Shown here piece after piece: positions 5,321 through 42,022 of a stretch of 45,069 nt of DNA. Numbering within the stretch: the first letter of the stretch is position 1; each line of letters begins with the position of its first letter. The position numbers were made by a program, and so were the translations under genes. Under the pieces are notes generated by a model, which was not told the DNA's origin, searched no databases, and was given only the letters and a program-made list of their open reading frames with translations. The DNA is from Oligoflexales bacterium (GTDB lineage: Bacteria; Bdellovibrionota_B; Oligoflexia; Oligoflexales; JBIKVD01): NCBI GenBank assembly GCA_044357055.1, contig JBIKVD010000002.1, forward strand, positions 1-45,069, in the 5' to 3' direction.

Positions 5321-5343
5321 CTCTTTTCGCGATGTTACAGGTT

Positions 5344-5391: not shown

Positions 5392-5404
5392 GTAAGTACC
5401 TGAA

Positions 5405-5734
5405 ATGAATGTTATAGATCCCCGCCTAAAATTAATCGCTAAATACCAAGCCAATAATCTCCGATTACTGTCAGAAATGATGAACAATGACTATTGGTCA
5501 AAAGCCAGGTTTTTGGAAGAAATTGACGAGCATTACAGGATGCTATTGAATAACTGGCCAAGGATGTCAAAGACTCGGAGGCTGGAGCAATGGCGGTTAG
5601 CGAAAAAATGGGCAAAGGAAGAGAACATTACCACCCCCAGACGGAATTCAGAATTGAACCGCCTTCCGGACGATCTAAGTCATTTAGGATTAGATTCAAC
5701 TCACCGGCTACCCAGGGCAAATGGGTACCAATAA
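5405..5734 (+). CDS. Hypothetical basic protein overlapping the 5' end of the integrase
   Basis: 109-aa ATG ORF between the att site and the integrase; overlaps it by ~130-145 nt; no recognised motif. Confidence 0.35.
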   Translation: MNVIDPRLKLIAKYQANNLRLLSEMMNNDYWSKARFLEEIDEHYRMLLNNWPRMSKTRRLEQWRLAKKWAKEENITTPRRNSELNRLPDDLSHLGLDSTHRLPRANGYQ

Positions 5735-11168: not shown

Positions 11169-11447
11169 ATTTACCTCCAAAATTCTTATTTCTGTTCGTT
11201 ACGTTATTACAAATACTCCTAAATTACAATTGCGATTGCCTCAATAAAAAGGAAGTAATCTTTCCTTTTGCTCAAGATTCTAAATTTTAAAAATTAGGAA
11301 AATTAATCGCGCCTGAGCACATCATCAATAACGATGCTCGACACGAAAATTAGAGGATTCGGAATGCCATAAATAAGCAAAGAGAATTGCAGTATGTACT
11401 GCGGCGGCATTTTTACAGGGGTATGCCAGGCATCAATCATCAGTATG

Positions 11448-12848: not shown

Positions 12849-12980
12849 TGTAGCCTCCTGGATAATCTTTAGGTCTGAAGCAACTTTAGCTAACCCATGA
12901 AAATACATCAAATCAATTGATACATTTGACTACAACATCACACTTCAAGAACGTTTAGGACCATCAATTTAAAAATTGCC

Positions 12981-21387: not shown

Positions 21388-23997
21388 TTATTTTTTGAAA
21401 TAAATGTCTTTGCCTTCTGTCAATGATTTCAAGTTTTGCTTCAGTGCAAATTGCAACCGATCAAGTGCTTTATAGGGACTGTAGTTGAGAGCATAATCTT
21501 TCGATGTATCCTTCATATGGGACACTGAGACTTCCTTAGCGACGTTCTCAAGTAGCATCGATCTCGCGCGCTTTTCATATTCACCCTTTGGCAGCTTATT
21601 AAGCTCTGCCTGCTGTTTCTCCGATAAATCTGGAAAATTGACCGAATTGATAAAGATTTCGTTATCGGCTCGCCCCCTCGACAATGAGACATAAAATCTT
21701 TCCCGGTCCATCAAGTTTCCGTCCACTACCACAAAAGCTTTATCAACCGTCATACTCTGAGACTTATTAGACGTGACGGCATAGCCGTATTTGAAGCCGG
21801 AAAAGGACGCTGGATTAAATTTAATGAGAGTCCCGTCATCCTTCTTAACTGAGATGAAAATAGAATTTACATCGACGACTTCGACAATATCTGAATTGAT
21901 GATACCCTTTGCTTTTCTATTTTCGGTGAAAATTAATCTGTCACCCCTTGCTACCTCAAACTCTGCCCTACCCCTTTTAAAAAAGTAACTTTTACCAAGT
22001 GCACCTTCAGCTTTGAGGTGAGACCGAATTTTCTCATTTAGTCTTCCCACGACGAGATTTGTTGTTGCCAGGATGAGGCTTGTTTTTTGCGGATTTGAGC
22101 TCCTAAACTCCTTCCATCTCTTAAGGATGCTTGCTTCAGCTTCATTTTGGTCTGTTTCGACGTGGAGATAGCCCTTTTTTTCGTAAAATTGGAAAGTTTC
22201 ATCGACCTTCCCTTCCCTGATTCCAAGAATGGTCTTTGCTTCTTCAGGGTCGGACTGACGCCTGACCGTTGAAAGTTCTGATCCATCAAATTTATTCTGG
22301 AGGGTACCAAACATTTGCCCTGCCTCGACAGGTTGAACTTGTTTTGTATCCCCGATAAGCAGCACTTTACAGCCCATTTTTTCGGCCTTGCGAAAGATTC
22401 TGTTGTAATACTTCGAGGCAAGCATCGCAGCCTCATCGACTACGAGAATTTGTTTTCGATTTTGTACACTATTCTTATAAAGAAAGGAGTGAACTGTGGT
22501 GGCATTTATCTTCACATCCCGCTCAATTGTCTGTGCAGCTTTGTGGGTGGGAGCGAGTGCTGTAAGCTTGTGTCCGGTCTGCTCATATATCTTTTCAAGA
22601 TATTGTAGTGCAAATGTTTTTCCACTACCAGCCACCCCTGAGATAAGCGAAATCCCGTCGGTATTTGTGGCCGTCGCAACCACAGTTTGGAGTTGATCTG
22701 GTGAAAGCTTCACCTCTTTACCTAGTAGCTTTGAATGTCGCTCGTTTTCCTCTTTAATAATCTTTTGCACCACATGAAGTTTTATACTGTGGCGATTTTC
22801 ACCGATTCGCCGTTTAAACATCCGGACAGTTTCATCCTCCTCCTGATACTTCCATTTTGTTGTTAGCACGTTATCATCATAGGTTTTTTGAAGGCGTATG
22901 AGATCACTCATCATGCCATGAAAGCTTGATTGAAAAATGTCTCCCGTTGACAGTTTTCCAATCGATCTTTCCGCCATTTTTCTCAGATAGACATAGGCTG
23001 GAAATGTCGATCTTTGGTCTATAATTTCACGCCCTGTGGCCTTGATAAGGTTTTTTCTGAATCGTTTTGATTGCCCTTTGTAGATGAACGTGGAACTGCG
23101 CATGCCTTCAATTTTAGCACTGCTTAGGCCCATTTCCTTGTGTTCCCGGCGCCAAGTTTCGAAATCGACTCGGCTATCTTTGTCGTATTTATTTCTTGTT
23201 ATGAAATTGTATTTTTGCTTAGCAAAGATTGATGCAGAAGATCTGTCGAGGCCTGATTGCTCGGCGAGTTTTTCAATTTCTTTGGACCGGGTTGAGCGAA
23301 AATCGATTAACTTTTGAGACACACCCTTAATTTCAAAACTGTGTTTTGTACGTCTCAGTTCAAATCCGGCGGTCTTAAGCCGGTGCGCAAGTTCTGCTTT
23401 ATAGAGAGCCCCCGCTGCCATTTTTCGTTTATAGTAGTGCGAATATTGCAGAGTTCGAAACTTGCTATCCTCGCAATATGCTACGTTAAACATGATGGCA
23501 TGGGTATGGAGTTGAGGATCACCGGCTCTTGAGGAAGAGTGCTGGAAAAGCGCAAAAATATTCTCAGCCTTCACCTTGATTTTGCCGCCTTTACCAGCTC
23601 TTGAGTGCCCGGATTGATGTTCCAGGTAATCAAGTGCTACCTTTGCCGCCTCGTTATGCGCATTTTCTACTATTTCCTTTGTTTTCTCATTTGCCGTTGC
23701 CCAGACAATCGAAACACTTTTGGGGGCCGAAAATGTGAAATCTACGCCCATTGCATGCTCTTCGCCTGCGTTTTGGACAAGCGCAGTCCCGCTTGGACTA
23801 AAGCCTTGCGCAAGGCGTTCCATAGCAAGCGGCATAACTGTAGCACCATTCAAAGAGCTGCCTGGAAGGCTTGGATCTGATAGCGCATGTGCTCCTCCAC
23901 CGTACCAAACGCCAGGCTTTTCTCCGCCTTCAATGCAGTATTCGGTATAATACTTTACGGCTTCTTTTGAATGCGCCAGTGGCTGAGCAGTAATCAA
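21388..23997 (-). CDS. MOBF relaxase-helicase (TrwC/TraI-like)
   Basis: N-terminal YY, DFTFSAPKSVS, HSSSRAGDPQLHTH; helicase motifs GVAGSGKT, VVDEAAM, YGYAVT..KSQSMT, YVSLSR. Confidence 0.95.
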   Translation of the reverse strand: MITAQPLAHSKEAVKYYTEYCIEGGEKPGVWYGGGAHALSDPSLPGSSLNGATVMPLAMERLAQGFSPSGTALVQNAGEEHAMGVDFTFSAPKSVSIVWATANEKTKEIVENAHNEAAKVALDYLEHQSGHSRAGKGGKIKVKAENIFALFQHSSSRAGDPQLHTHAIMFNVAYCEDSKFRTLQYSHYYKRKMAAGALYKAELAHRLKTAGFELRRTKHSFEIKGVSQKLIDFRSTRSKEIEKLAEQSGLDRSSASIFAKQKYNFITRNKYDKDSRVDFETWRREHKEMGLSSAKIEGMRSSTFIYKGQSKRFRKNLIKATGREIIDQRSTFPAYVYLRKMAERSIGKLSTGDIFQSSFHGMMSDLIRLQKTYDDNVLTTKWKYQEEDETVRMFKRRIGENRHSIKLHVVQKIIKEENERHSKLLGKEVKLSPDQLQTVVATATNTDGISLISGVAGSGKTFALQYLEKIYEQTGHKLTALAPTHKAAQTIERDVKINATTVHSFLYKNSVQNRKQILVVDEAAMLASKYYNRIFRKAEKMGCKVLLIGDTKQVQPVEAGQMFGTLQNKFDGSELSTVRRQSDPEEAKTILGIREGKVDETFQFYEKKGYLHVETDQNEAEASILKRWKEFRSSNPQKTSLILATTNLVVGRLNEKIRSHLKAEGALGKSYFFKRGRAEFEVARGDRLIFTENRKAKGIINSDIVEVVDVNSIFISVKKDDGTLIKFNPASFSGFKYGYAVTSNKSQSMTVDKAFVVVDGNLMDRERFYVSLSRGRADNEIFINSVNFPDLSEKQQAELNKLPKGEYEKRARSMLLENVAKEVSVSHMKDTSKDYALNYSPYKALDRLQFALKQNLKSLTEGKDIYFKK

Positions 23998-25550
23998 ATT
24001 TTGTCCTCAAGGCGAGTTGCTACCCACTTCAGCGCACTTTCAAAGCGCTCCTTTTGCTCTGGTTTTGCGGGACCTTTTCCTAGGTCAGGAACCCCATGCT
24101 GGTCTCTATGTAGAGGAAGGACTTGCGCCCACCTTCTGTGACGAATGCGAAGCTTTACCGGCATGAATGATAGGCTTGAAAGATAAAACCACCCGTCTCG
24201 CAAAGTTTGAATTTCAAATGGCATGACGACTGGCTTTGTTGCCACTGTTTCAGAATAGGAACCACTCGCTCCACTCCTCCCGGAGCTGCGGTTTTTCCTT
24301 AGGACTTCCGAGGACCCGAGCAGTTCAGACATTTCATTTGCATGCTTCGGTTCCTTAATTCTGAAGATGAATTTTGTGCCGATTTGGCCAAGCATCGCCG
24401 AAGCCTCATCGTGGCCATAAAGCTTTCTAAAATAGCTTTCCGATTGGTATGCGAGAATACAGCGCGCCGAGTATTTACGAAGCCGATCCAGAGATTTTCC
24501 AAGATTTTCGATCTTTCCGATCGTCGACACTTCATCGATGATAATGTTAATTTTTGTGTGCTTTTTCGAAGGATTTCTCGCAAAACAGCCAATGATTGCT
24601 AGGTTAAACCAGATCTTAAGAAGTGGTGACATGACGCCAAAGTCATCATCCTTTACCGGAATGAAAATCCAATTTTTGTCATCATTTTGTGTCCAGTCGT
24701 AAATACTAAACGCCGCCTCGTCTCCACGAGCCTTGGCCCAATAGTTCAAATCCTTAAGGAAGCTCAGTTCCATCAGTGCATGCGCAATAATACCTGCAGA
24801 TTGCGGAGTTTTTTTATCTCCGGTGATCGACTTTGCTGTCTCACTTAGGGAATCGAAAATGCTTCCGGCACCCCCTTGAACTAGATCTCTTAGTTCATCT
24901 AGTGAACTGCAGGAATCAATCAGCTGTCTTAGAACAATTCGTGCGCCATTCCACCAAAATTTGTCATGCTCATGGCCTGAGGGCACAAGAAATTCTGCAA
25001 TCTGGGCACTCGAAATTCGCTCTCCGCCCTGTCCCTCCTGATAAGGGTCCCAAAGCCTTGAGCGTTTGTCATAGAGACTTAAAATGTGATCACTTTCGCG
25101 ACCGAGTTCTGAGCAAATTTCGCCACCGACATCAAGAACAATGCACTTTTCTCCCGCAAGTCTTGCCCTTTCCAATAGGGCCTTAATTTGTGTCGATTTG
25201 CCAGCACCTGTGGCGCCAATGAAGGCGACATGGCGATCAAGCACATATTCCCAAATCGAGACTTTTGACTTTCCTCCTGAACATTCAAACGGGACTCCTT
25301 TCATCGCTTTAAGACTCAGTGGCTTGCCCAAATCTTCTTCAATTTCTTTCCGGTATGCGTCGGATTCAGCTTCAATTGCTTTTTGAAACCTTCTAGCCTC
25401 GACAAGCTTTGAACCTCGCAGAAACAGATCCGTATTTTTAGGCTTTTTGTTGTCACGGCTGGCAAGTAACGTGTAGGTCCCGTAGATAAAAATTGCGCAA
25501 ATACATGGCAAAAGAAGGCCGTATGGCCCTACATAATCTAGTAGTGACAT
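23994..25550 (-). CDS. Type IV coupling protein (TrwB/TraD-like)
   Basis: N-terminal transmembrane segment, Walker A GATGAGKS, IIIDEV, RKY...LAYQS; overlaps the relaxase start. Confidence 0.92.
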   Translation of the reverse strand: MSLLDYVGPYGLLLPCICAIFIYGTYTLLASRDNKKPKNTDLFLRGSKLVEARRFQKAIEAESDAYRKEIEEDLGKPLSLKAMKGVPFECSGGKSKVSIWEYVLDRHVAFIGATGAGKSTQIKALLERARLAGEKCIVLDVGGEICSELGRESDHILSLYDKRSRLWDPYQEGQGGERISSAQIAEFLVPSGHEHDKFWWNGARIVLRQLIDSCSSLDELRDLVQGGAGSIFDSLSETAKSITGDKKTPQSAGIIAHALMELSFLKDLNYWAKARGDEAAFSIYDWTQNDDKNWIFIPVKDDDFGVMSPLLKIWFNLAIIGCFARNPSKKHTKINIIIDEVSTIGKIENLGKSLDRLRKYSARCILAYQSESYFRKLYGHDEASAMLGQIGTKFIFRIKEPKHANEMSELLGSSEVLRKNRSSGRSGASGSYSETVATKPVVMPFEIQTLRDGWFYLSSLSFMPVKLRIRHRRWAQVLPLHRDQHGVPDLGKGPAKPEQKERFESALKWVATRLEDKI

Positions 25551-26346: not shown

Positions 26347-26691
26347 ATGAAAGTGAGTGAGGCAAAAACCGGAACGCTACTTCGGAAAGGGCGACCGAAA
26401 ACAGTCGTGATCAGGCTCAAAGAAAGCATTCTTTCTGAACTTGAGGCAAAGAGGATAGATCTATCGAAGCGCTATAAGGCTGAAGTTAGCAGAGATGACC
26501 TCATAAACTCGATCATCTTCAATTCAAGGCTTGAGATCAAAAACCTAGTAAAAGAGGAATCCAAGGTCGTAAAAGTCAAACTTATGGCTACGATGCTTGA
26601 AAAACTGGAGACGCTCTCACAGGGTTCAAGCGTCGACGAGAAAAAGATTCTTATGCAAATGATTGAGCGTGAGATGAACCGAGTTTACTGA
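26347..26691 (+). CDS. Small putative RHH DNA-binding protein
   Basis: GRPKTVVIRLKESILSELE...VSRDDLINSII; AAGGA ribosome-binding site; divergent from the relaxase operon. Confidence 0.6.
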   Translation: MKVSEAKTGTLLRKGRPKTVVIRLKESILSELEAKRIDLSKRYKAEVSRDDLINSIIFNSRLEIKNLVKEESKVVKVKLMATMLEKLETLSQGSSVDEKKILMQMIEREMNRVY

Positions 26692-27425
26692 AGCCACTTG
26701 TTGACATCGATCATTAGCGACTTCAGGTCGGCTGGGAGATCTTTAAAGACTTTTGAGTAAGCGGTCCATCTTGTCTGCATGTCGGAGCTTACCCATTCTA
26801 CGAGTAACTTGGGCTCTATCGAACGCTCGGACAAGATAGCCGATAGCTTTCTTCGGTCGATTAATCGACCTGACTGGGCGATACGCCAAAGATCGTCGTA
26901 GTCCTTGAGCCGAGTGTTGCCGGATACAAATCGCCAAGCTGCCGCGAGCTTATCTGCAATAATGTTCTCAATGGAGGCTGCTACGATGTCGGGTCTATCT
27001 CCAACAGGTGAGGGAATTGTGGTGGTGTCGACTGGCGCCTTATAGACAATATCAATGTCAAATCGGTTCGCTGCACCGCCCTCTGCTACAAACCGGATCG
27101 TAACCGCAGCCCCTACTTCGCCAACTTCTTTAAATTTTTCGACCGAGAATTTGAGAGCGGGATCAGGATTTTCGCAAACTCGCTCGATAAGCCTTCTCAC
27201 TTCGTCGTGAGTACCGCTACTGAGGGTGCTAAAATCCAAATCTACCGTCGGACGAGGAGTCTTGATGTAAACCCACAGGAGGTTACCACCCTTTAGAACG
27301 AAGTCTTTGGATTCCAGGTTAAGTCGTTGAACGAAGGAGAATATTATGAATTTGAAAAATGCTTGGGGACCGTGTAGACCTTGTTCTCGTTTCCATTTCC
27401 CTGCTCTGGTTATCAATTTACTCAT
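26685..27425 (-). CDS. abiEii: AbiEii-family nucleotidyltransferase toxin (type IV toxin-antitoxin)
   Basis: FVLKGG, RPTVDLDF, ENIIADKL, TRLKDYDDL. Confidence 0.9.
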   Translation of the reverse strand: MSKLITRAGKWKREQGLHGPQAFFKFIIFSFVQRLNLESKDFVLKGGNLLWVYIKTPRPTVDLDFSTLSSGTHDEVRRLIERVCENPDPALKFSVEKFKEVGEVGAAVTIRFVAEGGAANRFDIDIVYKAPVDTTTIPSPVGDRPDIVAASIENIIADKLAAAWRFVSGNTRLKDYDDLWRIAQSGRLIDRRKLSAILSERSIEPKLLVEWVSSDMQTRWTAYSKVFKDLPADLKSLMIDVNKWLQ

Positions 27426-28011
27426 CAGCTAGCTCCTGAGCGAGGTGGAATACGACTTTCGTGCCAAGTTTCTCATCGTAAAACCGCAATTTGTCGATAT
27501 TTGGCTTTCGGTCCTTAAGCTTGAGGTATCGTTTTAAAGCTTTATAAAACAAGGGACCGGCTTTGCTTCGCAGGTATGCATCCGAAAGGGAGCGTTCCAT
27601 GTCATATATCCGAATCACATGAGAGTGATAATGCATCTCAGTAATTCCAACGAGCCTATGGTCTGGAACCCTGTGGGCGTTTACAAGTTTATTGCGTATT
27701 GACGTCGCCCTGGGAATGTCGACGTCAATTTTATGAATTGCTTCATCCGTCAGCTCATAAATCGAGAGCGCTGTGATATTTGAAATCACAGCATTAGGAA
27801 AGTATTTCGACACTGCGAGCACTGAGGATATGAAGGGATCCAGTTTTATCGTGCTGTAATAGCCACTGCCAAGCGCAAAGATCTCTCCCTGATCTGCAAG
27901 TCTTCCCAGAACACTTGTCTGCGACACATAGGGTTCGAGCTCGCCTGCGGACATGACCAGCTCGTTACCTAGAGTCTCTATCAAAAGCTTCTTGTTAGTC
28001 ATCTTAGCCAT
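27418..28011 (-). CDS. abiEi: AbiEi-family antitoxin / transcriptional regulator
   Basis: N-terminal wHTH ending in G.Y, AVISNITALSIYELTD, IRIYDMERSLSD; overlaps the toxin gene. Confidence 0.88.
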   Translation of the reverse strand: MAKMTNKKLLIETLGNELVMSAGELEPYVSQTSVLGRLADQGEIFALGSGYYSTIKLDPFISSVLAVSKYFPNAVISNITALSIYELTDEAIHKIDVDIPRATSIRNKLVNAHRVPDHRLVGITEMHYHSHVIRIYDMERSLSDAYLRSKAGPLFYKALKRYLKLKDRKPNIDKLRFYDEKLGTKVVFHLAQELADE

Positions 28012-29348: not shown

Positions 29349-30296
29349 TTAAATTGTTAGACGCCAGCCAAAGCTATCAATTCCATGGCTAAGGCCTTCT
29401 TTTAGTGTCAAACCACCGAGGTCCGGTTTATTCATTTTAGCTTTGTAGGTTTCGAACTCATCTTGATTTGCAAAAAACAACATTTCATCACATGAGGGAC
29501 CGCCAGAGACAATAGTCTCGCTACTATCGCCTTCAAGTATCTTGTTTCCGTCGATCCTAATGACCAGATCACTTTGAAGAAGAGCAGATTTCGCAGCTAT
29601 CGTGATAGGTTTACCAAACATTGCCGAAATACCTAAAGCATCAATTGCACATCGTGCGTAGGCTGGCTTTTTGCCGTCAATTGTCACGATGACACCGAGG
29701 TTATCACTCGCGAATGGCCAAAGCCATTTTATACGGTCCGAATCTTTGTAAAATATTCCCGGTCTATTTTCTTTTAAATTCGCCCTAATATCCTCAGCGC
29801 CTAGTGAACTAAATCCATCGATTTTTCTAACTTCCTGATGGATTTCTTCAATGGTTGGAGCGCGACCAAGCTCTGGCCATAGGAGGTATATAGTTTTGAT
29901 TTCAGTTTTCAAAAGTGGAGGGAGGGCTCGATATTCAGCTTCAACCACCTTCGGATCGACACAGTTAGTTTGTTTGAAAGCAAAAACTGAACTTACAACT
30001 AATAATCCACCTACAGCGAGACCCACGAGCGATGATTTAAGTGGTTTACCTTGCCTATTAACGTTTCGTATAACAACGAACGAAAAAAATGCTGCCAATA
30101 TGAGCAGTGGTATTTTAAACATAGGTAGCCATATCGAGAGCGTACCTAGTCCGATACTTGCTAAAAAAGCCGCAAGTGGGAAAGCAAGACCACTGCATGC
30201 AGCCCCACAAAATCCGGTCAGCCCTAAGAGCCCAATGGACCCACCAGCGAAAGAGCCTACGATCTTGTTATTTTTTAGCCAAGCTTTTAGACCCAT
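29349..30296 (-). CDS. Membrane-anchored organomercurial lyase (MerB)-like fusion protein
   Basis: Hydrophobic N-terminus with FCGAAC; GRAPTIEEI; WPFA, YARCAIDALG, SCDEMLFF match the MerB Cys/Asp/Cys pattern. Confidence 0.75.
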   Translation of the reverse strand: MGLKAWLKNNKIVGSFAGGSIGLLGLTGFCGAACSGLAFPLAAFLASIGLGTLSIWLPMFKIPLLILAAFFSFVVIRNVNRQGKPLKSSLVGLAVGGLLVVSSVFAFKQTNCVDPKVVEAEYRALPPLLKTEIKTIYLLWPELGRAPTIEEIHQEVRKIDGFSSLGAEDIRANLKENRPGIFYKDSDRIKWLWPFASDNLGVIVTIDGKKPAYARCAIDALGISAMFGKPITIAAKSALLQSDLVIRIDGNKILEGDSSETIVSGGPSCDEMLFFANQDEFETYKAKMNKPDLGGLTLKEGLSHGIDSFGWRLTI

Positions 30297-30298
30297 AT

Positions 30299-30565
30299 CT
30301 ATCTCCCTTGAAGTTCTAATATTTTTTCTTCAAGCTCATTTGAGCTTGGGATTCTAACTGTACATCCAGCTCCTCCGACTTTTCCTCCAAAAACGATGTT
30401 TCCTTTTAAAAGAAGTGTAGGAGATGAAAAAGCTGCTAGAGGGTCATTCTCTTCGAGCCTTCCCTGATCAATTTCGTCGAACATCAAATTGGACGACTTT
30501 AAAAGTTCTTTAGCAACGCTGTAATTAGGGCATCCTTCAAAGTAAATCAGTGTTAAATTTTCCAC
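30299..30565 (-). CDS. Small thioredoxin/glutaredoxin-fold protein
   Basis: YFEGCPNY, FSSPTLL, distal Cys (GCT); lies between merR and the merB-like gene. Confidence 0.75.
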   Translation of the reverse strand: MENLTLIYFEGCPNYSVAKELLKSSNLMFDEIDQGRLEENDPLAAFSSPTLLLKGNIVFGGKVGGAGCTVRIPSSNELEEKILELQGR

Positions 30566-30566
30566 C

Positions 30567-30980
30567 TTAATGCTCCAACTTTTCTATTATTGGACAACAG
30601 CCATCAGATTTTGCTTTTTTACAGTCCAAAATTAATTCGCTCAAATTTTCTTCTATAGATTTTAGTTGAGTTATCTTCTTTTTAATCTCAGAAAGCTTAC
30701 TTTCAGCTCGAACTCTCACCTTTTCGCATTTTTCAGCATTCAAAAATCTAAGTTCGAGCAAATCCTCAATTTCTTTAAGCTGAAAGCCAAGATCTTTAGC
30801 CTGAATGATGAAGCGAAGTTTTTTGACAGAATGTGAATCATAACTTCTATATCCAGAATCATTTCGATCGATAGGAGCAAAAAATCCAAGTCGCTCATAA
30901 TAGCGAATTGTTTGAATATTGACGCCAACCTCTTTTGCTAACTGACCAATCGTAAACATGTTTTTATTCCCAGTGCTCAT
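30567..30980 (-). CDS. merR: MerR-family metal-responsive regulator (Hg/Cd/Zn-type Cys pattern)
   Basis: TIGQLAKEVGVNIQTIRYYER, LGFQLKEI, EKCEKV, DC...CCPII. Confidence 0.88.
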   Translation of the reverse strand: MSTGNKNMFTIGQLAKEVGVNIQTIRYYERLGFFAPIDRNDSGYRSYDSHSVKKLRFIIQAKDLGFQLKEIEDLLELRFLNAEKCEKVRVRAESKLSEIKKKITQLKSIEENLSELILDCKKAKSDGCCPIIEKLEH

Positions 30981-30988
30981 AGTTAACG

Positions 30989-31020
30989 AGTTTACACCTT
31001 GTACCTAGGTATAAGGTCAA
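30989..31020 (-). promoter_or_regulatory. MerR-type promoter/operator
   Basis: TTGACC-20 bp-TAAACT with a 22-bp dyad ACCTTGTACCT/AGGTATAAGGT at 30996-31017 (1 mismatch). Confidence 0.88.
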
Positions 31021-32203: not shown

Positions 32204-32671
32204 TCAAATCCAGCGTCTTGTCCGATGACGATAGTTATTATATTCGTCCCCAAACTTAGCTTCGAGATAGCACTCCTCTCTCTTTATGACGTAATAATTA
32301 ATAATGCCCACAAAAACTAGAATCATTAAAACCATCGTTAGACTATTTACCCAAATAGAAATTCCAAGCCCGATGAGTGCCATTGCAAGATACATCGGGT
32401 TTCGAGTGATCTTATAGATTCCGCTCGTTACAATTTTTGTCGTACTCTTCCACGGTTTAACATCAGTTCCCGCTTTTCGAAAAAGCCCTGCAGCGGAAAG
32501 TATAATGACAATACCTATGACTAAGAGCGAGATTCCAAGCCACATTTGCATCCCCTCGGGAACCACTGATTGATGAAAGATGGAATTAAGACCAAACCCA
32601 ATAATCAAACAGGTTAGAAGTATGAGAGGCGGAGGGAACTTGATTTTTGCGCTGTCTTCATCGATCTTCAT
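32204..32671 (-). CDS. Isoprenylcysteine carboxylmethyltransferase (Ste14/ICMT) family membrane protein
   Basis: FPPP, IVTSGIYKITRNPMYL, REE..LEAKFGDEY..Y...TRRW. Confidence 0.9.
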   Translation of the reverse strand: MKIDEDSAKIKFPPPLILLTCLIIGFGLNSIFHQSVVPEGMQMWLGISLLVIGIVIILSAAGLFRKAGTDVKPWKSTTKIVTSGIYKITRNPMYLAMALIGLGISIWVNSLTMVLMILVFVGIINYYVIKREECYLEAKFGDEYNNYRHRTRRWI

Positions 32672-33004
32672 GAATACCTCAGTCAAAAAATATGTCCCTA
32701 GCATAGCTTTGGCTGGCTGCTCTGCGACAAAGCAGTTCTAACGCGCTTAATTGCTAAAAAGAGCTACCTTTGGGTCTCCTGTATGTGCCCCAAGCAGCTA
32801 TAATTAAAGATTTTTATTAAAATGTCGAGGAAAAGATAATACAAATGAGTCAATGCCCAGGGCCCTAGCAGGTTAAAATTTCTGCCGTCGATTTTTCAAA
32901 ATCACAGCAATGATTCCGCCTGCGCTTGAGGTTGGCGTCGCGAAAGTCAATTATAAAATTATTCTGAACTTATTTTAACGAAATCTTTGGGATGAATGTA
33001 AGTT

Positions 33005-35202: not shown

Positions 35203-36417
35203 ATGAAGCTTACCCACCAAACCCTTCGCACACTGATGCGCTCGTTCCCATTTTGGGTCTGCATAAGCCTCGCCCTTTACGCACCCCTCATTAAAGGAGA
35301 ATCCATCACCGGGTGCACCTTTTACAAAGCTCCTTTCTCGTCCACCTTTTTGCCATGCGCAAAACCCCAGGCGACCTTCGGAGGCTGCACTAAAACCCGC
35401 TACGTAGCGGGTGTGCCGGTAAGTTACCCAGCTGTAAAGCTTGAGATGTGGCTACCGGAATATTTAATCGAAGTGACGGAAGAGCCTGGCGTGAGCATGT
35501 TCTCGCACCTTTCCCCTTCGCTAGGTAAACACCTTAACCTTGCCACAGCCTATTACTCATCGCACGCCCAGCAGGGCGCGCCCGAAATGGGCCAGGGAGG
35601 ACTCTCCGAGACCGGCCGATCTTACTTTTGGCACGCAAGAGCCATCGAAATCCCTTATGGTTACTCAGTTCTCCACTACCCCAATATGAAAGCCTCCGGC
35701 CCTCCGGCTGCACCTCTTTGCTTTAGCGCCATCAGCGAGCTTATTCCTGATCTTTGGCATCTGGGCCTTTCAGAACTGATCTTGTCCCAAGCCTTCATGA
35801 AACCGGCGCTGACCATGTGTTACTCAGACGCCGCTGGAATTTTGGCCCCTGCATTATCGGAGGCAATCGAAAAAGCAAAGTCTGAAACTCTCTCAGCCTT
35901 CGCAGGTTCCTCCACTAGCACCGACACCAGCATGTTTAACGGACTAAACTGCGCAAGACCCGTAGATACCAAATACGCAGCAATGAAGACCGTGACCGGC
36001 GACGCTGCTCGCATACAAAATCTCTGCATGAATTCCCTTGGACCACTACTTCCTCGCATGGGCCACATCGATGGGGATTCAAAGTATCAAACTGCAGTGA
36101 TTGCGAGTTGGAAATTTTCTTCTCTTTCAAAAGACGTTTTTGATCTTAAAAACCTGGGAATTCTAGGCACCGATCAGTGGCAAATGATCTATCCAAAGTC
36201 CACCCGAGCTGAATGCTTTAAGCCTGGCACTCTTTACTCAGATTTTTTACCTGGTCCCACTGAATTTCGAAACCCCTCGGAACCAAAAGATGGCACCTAC
36301 GTGTTCGCTGTGTGGCGAAAAAGGGAAGCTTGTGAGGACTTAAACGGTGCTACCTGGAAGGCGGAAGTCGAAGCCCTTGCAAACACGCACAAAGCCTCTT
36401 GCGCTGTGGTGAAGTGA
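35203..36417 (+). CDS. traU: TraU-family conjugal transfer protein
   Basis: Exported and Cys-rich; WLPEYLIEV, ISEL..DLWH, GPLLPRMG, QWQMIYPK...CF, YVFAVWRKREAC. Confidence 0.7.
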   Translation: MKLTHQTLRTLMRSFPFWVCISLALYAPLIKGESITGCTFYKAPFSSTFLPCAKPQATFGGCTKTRYVAGVPVSYPAVKLEMWLPEYLIEVTEEPGVSMFSHLSPSLGKHLNLATAYYSSHAQQGAPEMGQGGLSETGRSYFWHARAIEIPYGYSVLHYPNMKASGPPAAPLCFSAISELIPDLWHLGLSELILSQAFMKPALTMCYSDAAGILAPALSEAIEKAKSETLSAFAGSSTSTDTSMFNGLNCARPVDTKYAAMKTVTGDAARIQNLCMNSLGPLLPRMGHIDGDSKYQTAVIASWKFSSLSKDVFDLKNLGILGTDQWQMIYPKSTRAECFKPGTLYSDFLPGPTEFRNPSEPKDGTYVFAVWRKREACEDLNGATWKAEVEALANTHKASCAVVK

Positions 36418-37427
36418 TGTATAACCCATACCAGCTACAATTTTTAGATATCTGCAGCTTCGCACTGGCAAAAAGAGCAAGCGATATCCATATCGAGCCA
36501 ATTGATGATGGTCTTCGTATAAGGATTCGAACCAACGGAGAGCTCTCTGATCTCGCTACATTTGGCAAACAAGCGGCAGGACACTTTCTTGAATCGGTAA
36601 AAACGCTCCTTAAATTCGATATGTCAAAACTAGGCGTCCCGCAAGACACGAGATTTAGACATCCACAGGCCCGCGTGAACTTTCGTGGATCACTTCTTCC
36701 TACAAGCTACGGCGAAAAAATCTGCCTAAGACTTCTTCCCAGAGATGTGAATTTTAGCCTCGACACCTACTCTCTTGAAGAAAATGCCAAACGCGCTATT
36801 AGAGAGCTCACCCTAAAGAAAGAAGGGCTGATCCTTATCTCAGGTCCCACGGGCAGCGGAAAATCGACTCTCATGTACTCAGCTCTTGGCTCAATCGACC
36901 GCATAAAAAAATGCGTCTACACGGTGGAAGATCCCATCGAATATGAAATGGGTGGACTCATTCAAGTGCCGGTTGATCATAAGAAGATCACCTTTCCAAA
37001 AGCACTTCGCACCCTCATGCGCCAAGATCCCGACGTGATCATGGTGGGAGAAATTAGGGATGAAGAGACGGCAAAAATCGCTGTAACTGCCGCAGGCACT
37101 GGGCATCTCGTTATTGCCACAGTCCACGCGAATTCAGCCTTGCAGGTTCTAGCTCGCATGAGAAACCTAGGTGTTTCGGACTACGATCTGAAGTCAGTTC
37201 TACTCATGAGTTCCGCTCAAAGACTTGTTCGAATTTCTTGTCCATGTAGCAAAGGGTGCGATGAGTGCAGTTTTACAGGAGTCAATTCTAGAAAGCTTGT
37301 CTTTGAAGCGCTCATTAAAAAAGACGGCAACCTTCAGCGCCTTGGCTCAATCGACGAGAGCTTAGCCAGCCTTTTTGCAAAAGGTCAAATCACCCACGAA
37401 GAGTTTAACTCCTCCAAAGCCATATAA
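36417..37427 (+). CDS. GspE/PulE/PilB-family ATPase
   Basis: ASDIHIEP, PQD, GEKICLRLL, GPTGSGKS, TVEDPIE, MRQDPDVIMVGEIRD, TGHLVIATVH; TGATG coupling to traU. Confidence 0.92.
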   Translation: MYNPYQLQFLDICSFALAKRASDIHIEPIDDGLRIRIRTNGELSDLATFGKQAAGHFLESVKTLLKFDMSKLGVPQDTRFRHPQARVNFRGSLLPTSYGEKICLRLLPRDVNFSLDTYSLEENAKRAIRELTLKKEGLILISGPTGSGKSTLMYSALGSIDRIKKCVYTVEDPIEYEMGGLIQVPVDHKKITFPKALRTLMRQDPDVIMVGEIRDEETAKIAVTAAGTGHLVIATVHANSALQVLARMRNLGVSDYDLKSVLLMSSAQRLVRISCPCSKGCDECSFTGVNSRKLVFEALIKKDGNLQRLGSIDESLASLFAKGQITHEEFNSSKAI

Positions 37428-37438
37428 AGGTCACAAAC

Positions 37439-37828
37439 ATGAACGCAGATTGCCTATCACTCAAATTTGCTCTTCTTGAAAAGGGAGTACGAGAAATGGA
37501 AAGGGAAATGATGGAAAAGGACGTAATACGCTCAGAATCTAAAGAAATCTCAGTCCAGGGTTTCGTGGGCAGCGAGCCCAAAACCTTCAAATCGGGCGAT
37601 ACTTCTTCCACTAGATTTCGAGTCGCTATCAAAACGGAAACTAAAGAAACGAAGTGGGTCACTGTCAGCCTTAGAGGCGAGGTAGGCATCAAAATCGCCA
37701 AAGACCTTATCAAAGGCATGCCTGTCTTTATCAAAGGCAAGATCTCTGAATTCAAAGAAGATGACAAGGCGCCACGCTCTGTCATCTACGCAAATCAAAT
37801 ATACCGCCTTCAGTCATTTAGCGCTTAA
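37439..37828 (+). CDS. ssb: Single-stranded DNA-binding protein (OB fold, no acidic tail)
   Basis: VQGFVGSEP, FRVA, ETKWVTV, LIKGMPVFIKGKI; start may be further downstream. Confidence 0.8.
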   Translation: MNADCLSLKFALLEKGVREMEREMMEKDVIRSESKEISVQGFVGSEPKTFKSGDTSSTRFRVAIKTETKETKWVTVSLRGEVGIKIAKDLIKGMPVFIKGKISEFKEDDKAPRSVIYANQIYRLQSFSA

Positions 37829-37840
37829 AGGAAAAATCCC

Positions 37841-38602
37841 ATGAATCTAAAAAACGTCTTTCAAACCGTCTCTTCCGTTCTCCTCGTCACGCTTGCCATC
37901 TCGTCGTCGGTGATGGCAGTGATTCTCACAATGAGTGTCTCGAAAGTGATCGACGGCAATACGCTTCGCGTCTCAGATGCAGGCAAAATCACCCAGAGCG
38001 CCCATAAGGATTTTGACTGGAAAGTCTATTTCGACCCTAAAAATCCAGAATTCTGGGACGACGGTGCGGGCGAGCCGCCAAGACCCTTTCGCCATGTCGC
38101 GGCAAATCCCACAAAAGAGAACATTTCAAATTTAAGAAAATGGATCACTCTTCAAGAAAATAAAATCGCTGAGGTTCGAAAGCTCATTGGAGATGAAGGT
38201 GTTCAAGAAAACGAAAAAGGAATCAAAGACCTAAAGGAACTCCTCAGCTCCCATAAAGCCCCAAAGAAAGATCGCTCCGATGTCTCAAGCCAAATTGACT
38301 TAGTCTACATCTACTCCTCCACCTGCTCTGCCTGCAAAGCCTCAAAGGAAGTAGTGGAAAAACTCAAGCTTGATGGCGTGCGTGTCACCTCGCTTCAAAC
38401 TGACTTTGCCGAAGGTCTTGATAGAAACGCACTGCCTTATACGGGGGAGTACAAGACATCTTTCCCAAGTGCCGTTACCCCAACCTTTTACATCAAAGTG
38501 GGCGACGTATCTGCAGTCAAAATCGAAGGCTTTAAGCCTTACAACGAGCTAATGGCCACCATCTCTCGCCACGTCGAGCAAGAACTAAAATCTAGGAGCT
38601 AG
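37841..38602 (+). CDS. TraF/TrbB-like membrane-anchored thioredoxin-fold protein
   Basis: N-terminal transmembrane segment, AANPTKENI, YIYSSTCSAC (CxxC), VTPTF. Confidence 0.65.
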   Translation: MNLKNVFQTVSSVLLVTLAISSSVMAVILTMSVSKVIDGNTLRVSDAGKITQSAHKDFDWKVYFDPKNPEFWDDGAGEPPRPFRHVAANPTKENISNLRKWITLQENKIAEVRKLIGDEGVQENEKGIKDLKELLSSHKAPKKDRSDVSSQIDLVYIYSSTCSACKASKEVVEKLKLDGVRVTSLQTDFAEGLDRNALPYTGEYKTSFPSAVTPTFYIKVGDVSAVKIEGFKPYNELMATISRHVEQELKSRS

Positions 38603-38607
38603 TCCCC

Positions 38608-38916
38608 ATGCGTAGAGTCATATTTTTACTTTTCTTAGTCCCGTCGAAACTTTTTGCACAGACCGATTTTCTGATTGGCCGGGGCGAAGACAAAAGTAGT
38701 GAGCTTAAATTTTTAAACAACATCATTCAAACAGCTCAGTCGACTCTTGCCTACGCCGTGGGTCCACTCTTTGGCAGCTGGATGGTGCTCAAGGGTTTCA
38801 AGATGGTGGGTGCAGCCGAGAGGGGTGAAAAAGGCCCCGGAGTGACCATGATCATTGCTGGTGTTTGCTGTTTTGCCATTGGGCCAATCGTCTCTCAAGT
38901 TTTGAAAGTGATGTAA
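38608..38916 (+). CDS. Putative conjugative pilin
   Basis: Signal peptide plus two hydrophobic helices, 102 aa, directly before traL. Confidence 0.7.
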   Translation: MRRVIFLLFLVPSKLFAQTDFLIGRGEDKSSELKFLNNIIQTAQSTLAYAVGPLFGSWMVLKGFKMVGAAERGEKGPGVTMIIAGVCCFAIGPIVSQVLKVM

Positions 38917-38919
38917 GCG

Positions 38920-39252
38920 ATGCCTGAATATTTCGAGCGCTACCGGAAATTTGAGCGCCTTCAAAGTAACAAAATGATCGATAAGCCAATTCTTCTTTTG
39001 TGCCAGATGACTTGGATGGAGCTAGTCAGTGGGCTTTCGCTGGTCGTGGCTAGTTTTTACGTAGCCTTTGCCTCAAAGCTTGCGGCACTAGTCGTGGCAA
39101 TAGTCGGATTTTGTTTGCCGATTTATTTAAGAAAACTCAGACAAGTGATGCCACGCGGTACGCTGCTTCATTTTCTTTGGAACCTTGGACTTATGGATAA
39201 AGAACTACCTCGTGCGGCGCGTCGCACAAAAAAGACCGTGATGGGGCCCTAA
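38920..39252 (+). CDS. traL: TraL-like protein
   Basis: IDKP..L...WMEL, two transmembrane segments, PRGTLLHFLW..G. Confidence 0.75.
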   Translation: MPEYFERYRKFERLQSNKMIDKPILLLCQMTWMELVSGLSLVVASFYVAFASKLAALVVAIVGFCLPIYLRKLRQVMPRGTLLHFLWNLGLMDKELPRAARRTKKTVMGP

Positions 39253-39893
39253 TGGAAGCATTCAATTTATATGTGAGTTCACTTAGAGCAAGAATCAATA
39301 CGCTTCATCTTCTTTACGGCGTGTTAAGCGCCAGTCTTGGCATCATTTGTCTCTACTCATTTTATGTCAATTCTACTTTGAGAGAAGAGCTTAAAAATCC
39401 GGTGGCCTTTCTTGTACCTGGACACATTCCAGATGTGATCAAAGTAAGGGCAAACTCGGTGCCAGATAGTGTGGTGTTTGATTTTTTCGATTTCATTGCA
39501 GCTCAGATCGGAAATATTTCCTCAGAACAAATTGAAATTCAGTACGCAGCCCTTGAGCGCTACCTGTCTCCTGAATTTAAAGCACGTTTTAGGGCGGCAG
39601 CTAAAAACGCTATACCCCTTTGGAAGGACCGCCGAATTGATCAGCTCATTAGCTTTAAGCCACCAGAGCGTTTCGACCGTGTCACTGAAAACGGCGCTTC
39701 CCTTTTTACCCTGACGACTTGGATTACCGTGCAGCGCTATATGGACGGAAAGGCGCTTAAGCCTTACAGGGAACGCCTTGAAATTAGCTTTCGCACGAGT
39801 GCCGTCGACGAATCGAAAGCTTGGATTTTCGAAATTACAAACATCAAACGTGAAACGGAAGACGAATACCAGTCTAGAACCGAAATTAAGTGA
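39252..39893 (+). CDS. traE: TraE-like protein
   Basis: Single N-terminal transmembrane segment, LVPG, NISSEQI, YLSPEF; L-E-K-B-V-C gene order. Confidence 0.7.
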   Translation: MEAFNLYVSSLRARINTLHLLYGVLSASLGIICLYSFYVNSTLREELKNPVAFLVPGHIPDVIKVRANSVPDSVVFDFFDFIAAQIGNISSEQIEIQYAALERYLSPEFKARFRAAAKNAIPLWKDRRIDQLISFKPPERFDRVTENGASLFTLTTWITVQRYMDGKALKPYRERLEISFRTSAVDESKAWIFEITNIKRETEDEYQSRTEIK

Positions 39894-39902
39894 AAGGAAT
39901 AT

Positions 39903-40703
39903 ATGAAAAAAGTTCTCTTAACCGCCCTTTTTCTTGCGAGCTCCGTGCAAGCCGGCGAATTCGATTTCAAAGATGGGGGCACGCTCACGATCGAAGTCGA
40001 CCAAAATCTTGGATCTATGGTGGAATTTCCGTACCCGGTGAAAGTGATTCCAGCGACGAAATACTTTGAAATAAGCCCTGTGGAGACTGAGGTCGCAGAT
40101 AATGGCACGCCCGTGAATATCACCATACTTAATGTGAAGCCCGTTTCCATGAACCAGGTTAGGGAACTGGTGCCAATTATTCTTGAAGGTAAAAGAAGCA
40201 TCAAAGTTACCTTTGTTTCCAGAGATGCGAGTGATCGCCACCATAAAATCGTGGCACTAAGACAGCCGACTTTTAAACTAAAGGGCTTTCTTGAAAAAGA
40301 AACCTTTCTTATGACTCAAATGTTAAGGGACGAAGAAGCTGAAGGCTTCAAAAAAGAAGCGTTTCGAAGAAAGCTTGACGTCGAAGGTTATGACCAGTTC
40401 GATCTTTATCTCGTTAGAAAATATGAAGGCACGGAACTTAATGGCTATATCTTTAGGTTAATCAATAAAACAGAATATGAAATCACGATCAATCCCACAG
40501 CTATAAACTTTGCCGAACCCAACCGGGCGGCACTTTTGCAAATGGATTCTGAGACGCTTGTGCCTTGTAAGACAAAGGACCCAGCTTATAAACCAACCGG
40601 CCCATGTGCATCAACCATACGAATCGTGATCCGGGGTGAGTCGTTTGGCAAATTTGGGGCAAAAAGCGACCTGCCGTTTTTTCTAAAACCAACTGAGCGG
40701 TAA
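39903..40703 (+). CDS. traK: TraK-like exported protein
   Basis: Signal peptide; LMTQM...GF and YEG.EL.G..FRL.N C-terminal pattern; gene order. Confidence 0.65.
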   Translation: MKKVLLTALFLASSVQAGEFDFKDGGTLTIEVDQNLGSMVEFPYPVKVIPATKYFEISPVETEVADNGTPVNITILNVKPVSMNQVRELVPIILEGKRSIKVTFVSRDASDRHHKIVALRQPTFKLKGFLEKETFLMTQMLRDEEAEGFKKEAFRRKLDVEGYDQFDLYLVRKYEGTELNGYIFRLINKTEYEITINPTAINFAEPNRAALLQMDSETLVPCKTKDPAYKPTGPCASTIRIVIRGESFGKFGAKSDLPFFLKPTER

Positions 40704-40712
40704 GGATAACCT

Positions 40713-41687
40713 ATGATTTTTAAACATTTCTTGCGAAGCGTGTGCCTACTTTCAGCAGCGACGCTTAGTGCCGCTGAAATCCCAGTGGAAGATAAGACAG
40801 GGACCAGGGTGCATGCAAAGGACGAAGACGTCAGGGTCGACTCCGAATACAAGGAGCTCTATGAGCAGCAGCTATCTGCCAACGAAGAACTAAAGCGTTT
40901 GGTCGACATCAAGGAACAAGCCACAGCTCCAAAAGAAGAATCAATATTTGAGCCACCTCCTGAACCGCAGCCAAATAGTACGCCATCATTTTCGAATGAA
41001 GTGACGAGGCCGCGCACGTTACCTAGCGGTATTCAAGTTTTTGGTGCGACAAAAAGCGCAGGCGTAAAAACCACCGTCCTTCCGGCTGGAAGTTTCGTCA
41101 AAGCAAGGCTTCTGACCGGTGTGCAGGCCAATAGCCGCTACGCCTATGAAAGTTTACTACAGCTCGACTACGCCTATACCGGCCCTAATGGAGCGAAGAT
41201 TCCCCTTCAAGGCTGCATGGTCATCACAGATGCCAAGGCCGATCTTTCAATTGAGCGCGTGGTGATGGCTCCTCATACGCTGAGCTGTGTCATGGAAAAT
41301 GGTGAGCATTTTGATCGGGGCGTCAAAGGATTTGTCGCGGGTTCAGATTCAGCAAATGGGCTCGAGGGTGTTTATCTTAGTAAGCAAAACAAAGTTTTCC
41401 TTGCAGCTCTTCTTGCATCAATCGTCAAAGGTGCCGGCGAAGCCGTTCAAATGAGCAATATCGAAGAGCAAGTATCAGGCGCGGAGCACGGCGCAGTCGC
41501 TAGAAACTTTAAAGGCAATGTCACACAGTTTGCCGTAGCGAAAGGGCTCACCGACGCTGGCGGCATGGTCGCCGATTGGTACCTAGAGCAAGCGAAAGCC
41601 CTTCTTCCCACCATTGGCGTCGCAAGCGGCGCCGAAGTGTGGGTCGTCATGACTAAAACCGTCGAAATTCCAGACTTAGGAGAATGA
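40713..41687 (+). CDS. traB: TraB/VirB10-like core complex protein
   Basis: Pro-rich linker, LPAGSFVKARLLTG, GC.....KADLSIERV, LSC, ADWYLEQA...PTI.V.SG. Confidence 0.88.
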   Translation: MIFKHFLRSVCLLSAATLSAAEIPVEDKTGTRVHAKDEDVRVDSEYKELYEQQLSANEELKRLVDIKEQATAPKEESIFEPPPEPQPNSTPSFSNEVTRPRTLPSGIQVFGATKSAGVKTTVLPAGSFVKARLLTGVQANSRYAYESLLQLDYAYTGPNGAKIPLQGCMVITDAKADLSIERVVMAPHTLSCVMENGEHFDRGVKGFVAGSDSANGLEGVYLSKQNKVFLAALLASIVKGAGEAVQMSNIEEQVSGAEHGAVARNFKGNVTQFAVAKGLTDAGGMVADWYLEQAKALLPTIGVASGAEVWVVMTKTVEIPDLGE

Positions 41688-42022
41688 AATTGAAAAAACT
41701 TCTTATACTTTTAATGCTACCAAGCTGTGCGTCCATGCCGGAGAGTAACTTTGAACTTGATCGCCGCAGTGGCATGAGACCACCGGGCGACGCCTCTACC
41801 GATGTTATAGAGACCTTGCGAAGCGAGCGAAACCTGACGCAAACGCCTAAGATGCCCGCAAGGGTCGAGCCACTTATAGAAAAGATTTGGGTTTACGACC
41901 AGATTTTAGAAGGTGGTCACTGGCTTTCGGGGACTTGGATGTTTGTAGAAATCGAGCGCTCCCGCTGGCTACCAGAGCTGGATACGGGTGCCGCTCCCCT
42001 CATTAAAGAGGAGTCAAAGTGA
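41684..42022 (+). CDS. traV: TraV-like lipoprotein
   Basis: Lipobox LPSC, P.R....KIWV, FVEIERSRW. Confidence 0.72.
   Translation: MKLKKLLILLMLPSCASMPESNFELDRRSGMRPPGDASTDVIETLRSERNLTQTPKMPARVEPLIEKIWVYDQILEGGHWLSGTWMFVEIERSRWLPELDTGAAPLIKEESK

Follow-up and report, generated by a model that had tools for sequence, protein, structure and literature searches.

We describe a gene that joins a Cys-bearing membrane module to a MerB-like domain, a putative organomercurial lyase, in a single polypeptide. It lies in a window of 45,069 nucleotides (nt) (the whole stretch of DNA analyzed, positions 1 to 45,069 of contig JBIKVD010000002.1 in Oligoflexales bacterium assembly GCA_044357055.1), and the carrier of the window is a freshwater predatory-type bacterium with a mobile element. 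Gene arrangement and regulatory motifs indicate that the fusion gene, a merR gene, and a gene for a small glutaredoxin-like (Grx-like) protein make up a three-gene, MerR-controlled module on an integrative conjugative element; this trio is conserved. Taken as a whole, we lean slightly toward the reading in which the trio comprises a three-span membrane module, a periplasmic lyase, and an inward Hg(II) relay. The more specific proposition, that this is a natural extracytoplasmic organomercurial lyase with an intramembrane Cys relay to a cytoplasmic Grx-fold acceptor and no linked MerA, we put forward more tentatively, at a little under an even chance. The parts of the fusion gene are as follows.

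29349-30296, minus strand: membrane-MerB fusion gene, with an ATG start, 315 amino acids (aa), and the stop codon at 29349-29351.
29976-30296, minus strand: membrane module, residues 1-107, as delimited by hydropathy and alignments.
30207-30209 and 30195-30197, minus strand: codons of Cys30 and Cys34, in span 1 of the module.
29961-29963, minus strand: Cys112, juxtamembrane, directly after span 3 (alignments).
29352-29924, minus strand: MerB-like domain, residues 125-315, with a winged-helix-like N-terminal part and a lyase core (Pfam, alignments).
29649-29651, 29640-29642, and 29490-29492, minus strand: Cys216, Asp219, and Cys269 of the MerB-like domain.

The reading frame is no chance frame, because 13 full-length relatives (P0002 to P0014, 297 to 314 aa) cover 93 to 98% of it at 37 to 44% identity, with E values down to 4e-64. 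Its ATG follows the preceding gene's stop codon by 2 nt, and a good Shine-Dalgarno-like sequence, AGGGAG, is located 7 nt 5' of this ATG. A hairpin 3' of the stop codon folds no better than shuffled sequences do (z = −0.75), and therefore no terminator is claimed for the gene. The RNA data consist of a single 264-nt contig from one RNA library, which spans 30547-30810 (part of merR) and leaves the fusion gene uncovered; this coverage is evidence neither for nor against expression.

A sequence-only reading of this DNA had proposed that a hydrophobic N terminus with a Cys pair is fused to a MerB-like region, and this was borne out. The strings that it quoted are present in the translation, which contains GFCGAACSGLAFPLAAFLASIGLG, RNVNRQGKPLK, ARCAIDALG, and PSCDEMLFF. 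Residues 204-305 match Pfam MerB (PF03243) with an E value of 4e-11 and 43.4 bits, which exceeds the gathering score of 27, and the same model is matched by all 17 family members that were aligned. Compared with chains of solved structure, the family profile retrieves MerB2 (5c17, E = 1.4e-9) and Escherichia coli MerB (1s6l/3f0p, E = 5.7e-4). The family motif ARCAiDaLG aligns with YAWCALDTL of MerB (residues 94-101, including C96 and D99), and sCdemlFF aligns with the C159 motif, so that C216, D219, and C269 are the equivalents of MerB C96, D99, and C159 (E. coli numbering); all three are invariant in 17 of 17 aligned members. The fusion is real: one polypeptide combines the Cys-bearing membrane module with a MerB-like domain whose Cys-Asp-Cys triad is intact.

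The domain is, by its scores, divergent from curated MerB. Both curated models were matched below their cutoffs (NF009710, 17.7 versus 193 bits; NF033555, 15.3 versus 200 bits), and the top NCBIfam match was the model for the MerB-like protein SaoL (E = 1.2e-9, 38.3 bits versus a cutoff of 140). Membership in SaoL was rejected on that score and because the described SaoL biology differs. The protein also departs from MerB as a soluble cytoplasmic partner of MerA, having a membrane module of about 107 aa fused to it and merA unlinked. Cys content differs as well: 19 of 19 fused members have exactly two Cys in this domain, compared with medians of three in eight forms with a signal peptide, lipoprotein signal, or MerT, four in four soluble sisters, and six in the other 77.

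The membrane module begins with a Lys-rich N-terminal tail, followed by a long span 1 with Cys30-x3-Cys34, the turn LPMFK, span 2, the loop RNVNRQGKPLK, and span 3. The hydropathy profile is uncharged over residues ~12-76, the charged loop occupies residues 77-87, and the last hydrophobic span covers residues 88-107. Cys112, directly after it, is kept in most fused family members. Both hydropathy and alignments indicate that the module stops after the third span and that the fourth span of MerC is absent.

The same sequence-only reading had labeled this module MerC/MerT-like, a label that the sequence comparisons support weakly. On the MerC side, NF033784 matched positions 16-97 of its 123 with an E value of 0.0089 and 16.4 bits, well short of the cutoff of 140, and did so for one of 17 family members; Pfam MerC (PF03203) likewise matched one of 17, with an E value of 1.5, below the cutoff. 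Single weak matches were obtained with Pfam MerF for P0021 (E = 0.001) and with Pfam MerC for P0070 (E = 0.057). When 25 modules were compared with five MerC sequences by hhalign, the probability was 64% (E = 6.6e-5) over 45 columns that run from the second Cys through span 2, versus 4.4% for module against MerT and 1.8% for a MerC-against-MerT control; comparisons of the module with single MerT, MerC, MerE, and MerTP sequences were weak (E = 0.02 to 0.6). The MerT model PF02411 did not match the window protein, and no MerT was detected anywhere in its metagenome-assembled genome (MAG). Searching the PDB with the module alignment gave chance matches (E of at least 0.26), none of them to a mercury transporter. 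No short relatives of residues 1-115 emerged from a word-based search, and an Atlas feature search with residues 1-118 reached a score of at most 0.78, below the usable level. We suggest that the module functions like MerC and may be its distant relative.

The lyase domain probably faces the periplasm. The sequence-only reading had argued for this side from the basic loop before the last span, and the argument is now supported in part, and indirectly, by mutually independent lines: charge statistics, a split two-span relative, and domain swaps with signal peptides and MerT; the orientation is unproven. Also in its favor are the Grx-like domain at the cytoplasmic N terminus of MerC, MerT-HMA, and this module, the clustering in MerB trees, and the two-Cys lyase domain of the fused members. 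In the 25 modules, Lys and Arg residues average 2.68 in the N-terminal tail, 0.96 in the turn, 3.56 in the basic loop (Asp plus Glu, 0.04), and 1.36 after span 3 (Asp plus Glu, 1.44). A three-span model with the N terminus inside would place 6.2 positive charges inside and 2.3 outside, compared with 5.0 inside and 3.6 outside for a four-span model. In the accepted MerT model, as given in the available portion of PMC5715351, spans 2 and 3 are connected by a cytoplasmic loop, and the available portion of PMC3466566 assigns three spans to MerT and four to MerC.

The split relative comes from the window's own order (locus L019 of genome G061, 1184-2860) and consists of four proteins: a MarR-type regulator, in place of a MerR, with Cys pairs at its end (CC...CC); a two-span, 89-aa Cys protein; a separate 184-aa MerB (P0036) whose N terminus has no hydrophobic stretch; and a Grx-like protein. 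The 89-aa protein matches positions 11-84 of the 113 in the module hidden Markov model (29 bits) and ends in the basic loop plus CC. By comparison, the fused form therefore has one more span, between the basic loop and the lyase.

Domain swaps point to the same side. A CxxC thioredoxin-like domain stands behind the module in P0070 and P0084 (without an N-terminal Grx-like domain) and in P0138 (with one). The CxxC domain of P0084 and P0138 shares 36 to 40% identity (E = 8e-47 and 2e-39) with a protein that has an N-terminal signal-like peptide and is located beside a bona fide MerA, and the signal region of this stand-alone protein aligns with span 3 of the module. In MerTP and P0172, an HMA domain follows span 3, and P0017 and P0024 have a lipobox-like signal, then HMA, then MerB. 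In addition, a sister subclade comprising P0040, P0042, and P0046 (approximate likelihood-ratio test [aLRT] support of 99) carries a Cys-rich linker and MerB behind a full MerT in P0040 (PF02411, 41.7 bits versus a cutoff of 32.9), behind a signal peptide in P0042, and behind this module in P0046.

These forms also cluster in MerB trees, which were quick IQ-TREE runs with SH-aLRT support and without bootstrap. Of 154 MerB-domain matches in 164 proteins, the main tree used the 113 that span 150 or more profile positions in proteins no longer than 600 aa. All 20 module fusions fall in a single 36-row clade (aLRT 92; 96 for a 33-row clade nested in it), as do eight of the 12 rows with a hydrophobic N terminus, and 73 of the 77 rows outside that clade are without one. 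A 60-row tree had the same branch order.

The regulatory region and the remaining genes of the trio are located directly upstream of the fusion gene.

30567-30980, minus strand: merR, a MerR-family metal sensor of 137 aa (Pfam MerR_1, MerR, and MerR-DNA-bind).
30989-31020, minus strand: MerR-type promoter/operator, with a −35 element TTGACC at 31020-31015, a 19-nt spacer, and a −10-like GTAAAC/TAAACT.
30299-30565, minus strand: 88-aa putative glutaredoxin/thioredoxin-fold protein without a signal sequence, as suggested by a weak family match and structural neighbors.

The gene order is merR, the 88-aa protein, and the fusion in the window, and fusion, merR, and small protein in L010, L011, L012, and L020 to L023; all eight loci with sufficient flanking sequence hold the trio. 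With 125.2 bits against TIGR02051, the window MerR falls below the cutoff of 150.85, and that model is the best of 19 MerR-family models. It and the annotated Hg(II)-responsive MerR of L013 have Cys85, Cys120, and Cys129 (C-x8-C) in common as invariant residues, and the Cys triad of Hg(II)-type MerR, at the start of the dimerization helix and in C-x8-C, is present. The promoter spacer holds the palindrome ACCTTATAC-CTAG-GTACAAGGT (30996-31017, 92% complementary), the half-sites of which have diverged from the TCCGTAC/GTACGGA of the relatives. A TCCGTAC-N-GTACGGA dyad is found directly upstream of the fusion in L010, L021, L022, and L023, with a near-copy in L011, and the annotated Hg(II) merR promoter of L013, TTGACTCCGTACATGACTACGGA, is a site of the same type as these dyads. 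A standard sigma-70 scan with spacers of 16 to 18 nt found no promoter upstream of merR, as expected with a spacer of 19 nt. Within 30980-30995, the −10-like hexamer is about 9 nt before the merR ATG, without a Shine-Dalgarno sequence, and the merR message may be leaderless or nearly so.

The 88-aa protein had been proposed as a thioredoxin-fold partner of the fusion on the basis of adjacency, and the partnership is supported by the locus and fusion data below. No Pfam family matched it, and its glutaredoxin match was weak (E = 0.04). Its Atlas model (predicted local distance difference test score, 0.72) has Thioredoxin_3 and Glutaredoxin clusters as neighbors (template-modeling scores of 0.63 to 0.79), as well as clusters in which MerC or MerT is common. 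Across 12 sequences, the small protein has an invariant Cys12 in CP(N/G) (CPN in the window), an SSP loop, and an invariant Cys68. Besides its presence in all eight loci, a Grx-like domain is fused, signal free and at the extreme N terminus, to the module in P0021 (with MerB; a cluster of five members, two of them on one 196-kb contig), P0037, and P0138 (with the CxxC domain). The same domain is fused N-terminally to MerC in four clusters (P0171, P0173, P0174, and P0175), and P0172 has the order Grx-like, MerT, HMA. From these arrangements we infer that the small Grx-like protein is a cytoplasmic thiol partner of mercury importers, and the fusions to MerC and MerT-HMA suggest that it may be a general cytoplasmic acceptor for them.

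The genes around the trio vary by locus: CadD, DUF1775, and FTR1-cytochrome c in L010; PhyH in L011; and a PEMT/ICMT-like protein, SnoaL, a methyltransferase, and GNATs in L020. The sequence-only reading had also drawn the efflux pumps of the element into the system; they are unsupported as part of it because the flanks differ between loci and pumps are not conserved beside the module in relatives. A PEMT/ICMT-family membrane methyltransferase is encoded about 1.2 kb from the module in the window (32204-32704, minus strand), and another directly upstream of the fusion in L020 (17-592), which makes two of eight loci with one near the module; this proximity could be accidental or reflect a loose link to metal loci. 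In another lake-water run, a contig matches the window up to 29346 and then continues into unrelated sequence, and this position, just past the fusion stop codon, is a possible boundary of the three-gene module in related elements.

Based on these features, we hypothesize the following route. The module would cross the membrane three times with its N terminus inside, which would place the lyase in the periplasm, where C216, D219, and C269 would cleave the C-Hg bond of an organomercurial before it enters the cytoplasm. Hg(II) held by Cys216 and Cys269 would pass by thiol exchange to Cys112 and then to Cys30 and Cys34 within span 1, and in most relatives a CGC pair at the cytoplasmic end of span 3 could be a further relay site. 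Hg(II) would next be taken up by Cys12 and Cys68 of the Grx-like protein and be sensed by MerR. The lyase would thus occupy the place of MerP in MerT-MerP systems, and the final sink of Hg(II) could be an unlinked MerA, thiol sequestration, or efflux.

The absence of merA from these 45 kb, which had been noted before, holds. No pyridine-nucleotide disulfide oxidoreductase was detected in the 34 open reading frames of the window that were scanned, and tblastn with the bona fide MerA of L015 (E of at most 1e-3) found nothing in the window or in nine related loci. In the window MAG, which is 83.1% complete in 505 contigs, no match to TIGR02053 reached the cutoff of 454 bits, the best being 368.8. 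Three below-cutoff candidates were rejected: L001, without the C-terminal Cys pair; L002, a lipoamide dehydrogenase beside sucB/sucA; and L003, which is glutathione-reductase-like. Of three other carrier genomes, two have no MerA above the cutoff and one has a MerA (494.6 bits, with a CC-pair end) on another contig. Accordingly, merA is unlinked to the module, and MerA independence, which had been suggested as a route, is not proven and does not stand as a firm claim given the incomplete MAG, an element that extends past the contig end, and the one carrier with an unlinked MerA.

Two loci with MerA or MerA-like genes were noted in addition to the module itself. L015 (G003, 1498-3977) encodes a MerA without an N-terminal HMA, preceded by two signal-peptide proteins, one a CxxC thioredoxin-like protein without a Pfam family and the other a Cys-rich HMA protein. 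L017 (G001:C2:52613-54010) encodes a MerA-like oxidoreductase (349 bits, below the cutoff) with one in-frame TGA, which could be selenocysteine, a frameshift, or an error.

Several points weigh against a periplasmic lyase with an inward relay. The CGC pair that most relatives carry in span 3, at its cytoplasmic end, is missing from the window protein, and the comparisons above do not place the module within the MerC, MerT, or MerF family. The first hydrophobic stretch is about 38 aa long with a mean hydropathy of 1.3 to 1.95 and could form a hairpin, so that the module would have four spans and the lyase would be cytoplasmic. Export signals are absent from the closest sister MerBs (P0026, P0027, P0031, and P0036), and the one whose context is known works alongside cytoplasmic proteins. 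Signal peptides were judged by simple features, and in P0028 and P0035 the hydrophobic stretch is followed by more positive charge than precedes it, which leaves the charges flanking their putative signal regions ambiguous. Catalytic thiols in the periplasm would have to stay reduced. Lastly, the window MAG is incomplete, one of the four carrier genomes has an unlinked MerA above the cutoff, and how importing Hg(II) without MerA would protect the cell is not obvious.

Of the alternatives, the one that survives best, though we consider it unlikely, takes up the hairpin: span 1 would be two spans, the lyase would be cytoplasmic, and the module would import organomercurials as MerC, MerE, and MerT do and hand them to its own MerB, with the Grx-like protein taking the Hg(II). 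A stretch of 38 aa could hold two spans, and it is established knowledge that all characterized MerB enzymes are cytoplasmic (PMC8261052 and PMC3466566, in their available portions). The soluble sister MerBs are signal free and the split system of L019 is wholly cytoplasmic; the Grx-like partner and MerR are cytoplasmic as well, and channeling within the cell needs no reduced periplasmic thiols. However, four spans would leave the most basic loop (K+R, 3.56; D+E, 0.04) outside, and the 89-aa split protein has to cross the membrane just once with its homologous stretch, since otherwise its CC tail and basic end would lie outside. The added span of the fused form would be needless with the lyase inside, and the same C-terminal domains sit behind signal peptides or the third helix of MerT.

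A second alternative, which we think quite improbable, keeps the lyase in the periplasm but treats the membrane Cys and the cytoplasmic thioredoxin-fold protein as a DsbD/CcdA-like reductant relay that would keep the catalytic thiols reduced. Its best evidence is P0138, in which a thioredoxin-like domain, the Cys-bearing module, and a C-terminal CxxC thioredoxin-like domain follow one another (P0070 and P0084 have no N-terminal domain); the CxxC domain appears to be exported when it stands alone, judging by a signal-like peptide identified from simple features. Thiol-disulfide relays from cytoplasm to periplasm resemble this architecture. The small protein, however, has CPN and a distant Cys rather than a CxxC redox motif and occurs joined to the Hg(II) importers MerC and MerT as well, and the MerR sensor requires intracellular Hg(II); no family scan gave a sequence link to DsbD or CcdA. 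Least probable of all is that the MerB-like domain does not cleave organomercurials and instead acts on another organometal or serves as a periplasmic domain for metal binding or handover: the scores far below the cutoffs of the curated MerB equivalogs would allow this, as would, in the available portion of a preprint (10.1101/2022.07.06.499078), the unproven substrate of proteins covered by the SaoL model and the occupation of MerB-family sites by other metals, but the full Cys-Asp-Cys triad is invariant, the regulators have the Hg(II)-type Cys triad, relatives have mer-type operators, and the partner domains are those of mercury transport systems.

The fusion is, by profile and pattern searches, a conserved family that is rare and patchy and so far comes from Bdellovibrionales-labeled MAGs and metagenomes. 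A word-indexed search returned 18 proteins at an E value of at most 1e-3, including the 13 full-length relatives, and an exhaustive profile search returned 1046 at E of at most 1e-3, 197 at 1e-10 or below, and 23 at 1e-30 or below. Full-length fused representatives in the profile search are P0005, P0001, P0019, P0020, P0022, P0023, and P0021, with P0046 more distant. A pattern scan of one genome per species found three loci, all in MAGs labeled Bdellovibrionales or Pseudobdellovibrionaceae. Among 131 genomes of the window's phylum, two matched: the window genome and one with the MerB part only. The gene is present in 2 of the 11 genomes from one carrier's order. Source names of the fused forms are uninformative, and a relative from the window's own order is labeled "organomercurial lyase [Oligoflexales bacterium]" by its source. 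The window DNA was found letter-identical in several lake-water metagenomes.

The element that carries the trio is recognizable by its integrase and conjugation genes.

5247-6756, plus strand: tRNA-Met (5247-5321) and then a tyrosine integrase, the left end of the integrative conjugative element.

Conjugation genes at 21388-25550 and 35203-44649 encode a TrwC relaxase, a TrwB-type coupling protein, a VirB11-like ATPase, TraU, and TrbI. A tRNA-side integrase, relaxase, coupling protein, and type IV secretion system, the features of an integrative conjugative element, are thus present, and the right end lies beyond the contig. The element (5247-25550 and 35203-44649) is inserted at tRNA-Met, after dnaG and rpoD, the latter (2693-5161, plus strand) encoding an unusually long sigma-70 of 822 aa, in which region 1.1 is preceded by about 240 residues. 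Among the cargo genes of the element are those for a CzcA-type RND pump with its partners, for a CDF transporter, and for a Cd/Zn-type P1B ATPase (TIGR01512, 505.9 bits). Amid this metal-resistance cargo, two adjoining genes (9513-12911, minus strand) encode large peptidyl-arginine/agmatine deiminase-type proteins (PAD, PAD_porph), one with a CBM_56-like tail. Also on the element is a gene for an AbiEii-type nucleotidyltransferase toxin that overlaps an upstream 197-aa gene, probably its antitoxin (26685-28011, minus strand).

Reviews and environmental merB surveys treat MerB as a soluble cytoplasmic enzyme that feeds MerA. An extracytoplasmic location, if true, would be unusual for an organomercury-cleaving enzyme and would represent a second architecture for organomercury detoxification, in which importers of the MerC/MerT type would have the Grx-like domain as a general cytoplasmic partner that had gone unrecognized. 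If MerB-like proteins with signal peptides, lipoprotein-HMA heads, MerT, or this module form such a clade, methylmercury could be demethylated before cell entry. It would also alter how metagenomic merB matches are read, merB without merA being common, and what is needed for Hg(II) release from the enzyme where a thiol buffer is absent. The interest for the mercury field is real if the orientation is confirmed.

A full-text literature search found no description of a membrane-fused or exported MerB, although supplements may list such variants, and the available portion of a paper on mer diversity (PMC8261052) has no passage on fused or membrane MerB. The closest published systems each share part of the design. 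SaoL, from the SAO locus, is likewise a divergent MerB-like protein outside classical mer operons. As described in the available portion of the preprint (10.1101/2022.07.06.499078), SaoL is a cytosolic protein of anaerobes that is encoded in a nine-gene locus and is in most cases a selenoprotein with a CU motif; none of these traits applies to the window protein. MerBA is a natural MerB-MerA fusion that couples MerB to the next Hg(II) step (PMC11227200, available portion); it is soluble, cytoplasmic, and coupled to a reductase, whereas here the coupling is to a membrane module and there is no reductase.

The module resembles MerC, MerT, and MerF in its long span 1 with an intramembrane Cys pair, its span 2, and its basic cytoplasmic loop. 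It resembles MerT further in that span 3 would carry the C-terminal part outward, that part being a MerP-like HMA domain in MerTP and P0172, and it shares with MerC and MerT fusions to the same Grx-like domain. It differs from all three in its marginal sequence relation, its C-x3-C motif, its end after the third of MerC's four spans, and its enzyme payload. The lyase domain, for its part, resembles the MerB of E. coli R831b (1S6L/3F0P) and Bacillus MerB2 (5C17) in exceeding the PF03243 cutoff, in its equivalents of Cys96, Asp99, and Cys159, and in MerR-type control. It differs from them in low identity, a Cys-bearing membrane tether, a probably extracytoplasmic location, and only two Cys in the domain. 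In contrast to MerB operons, merA is unlinked here, and the linked partner is the Grx-like protein.

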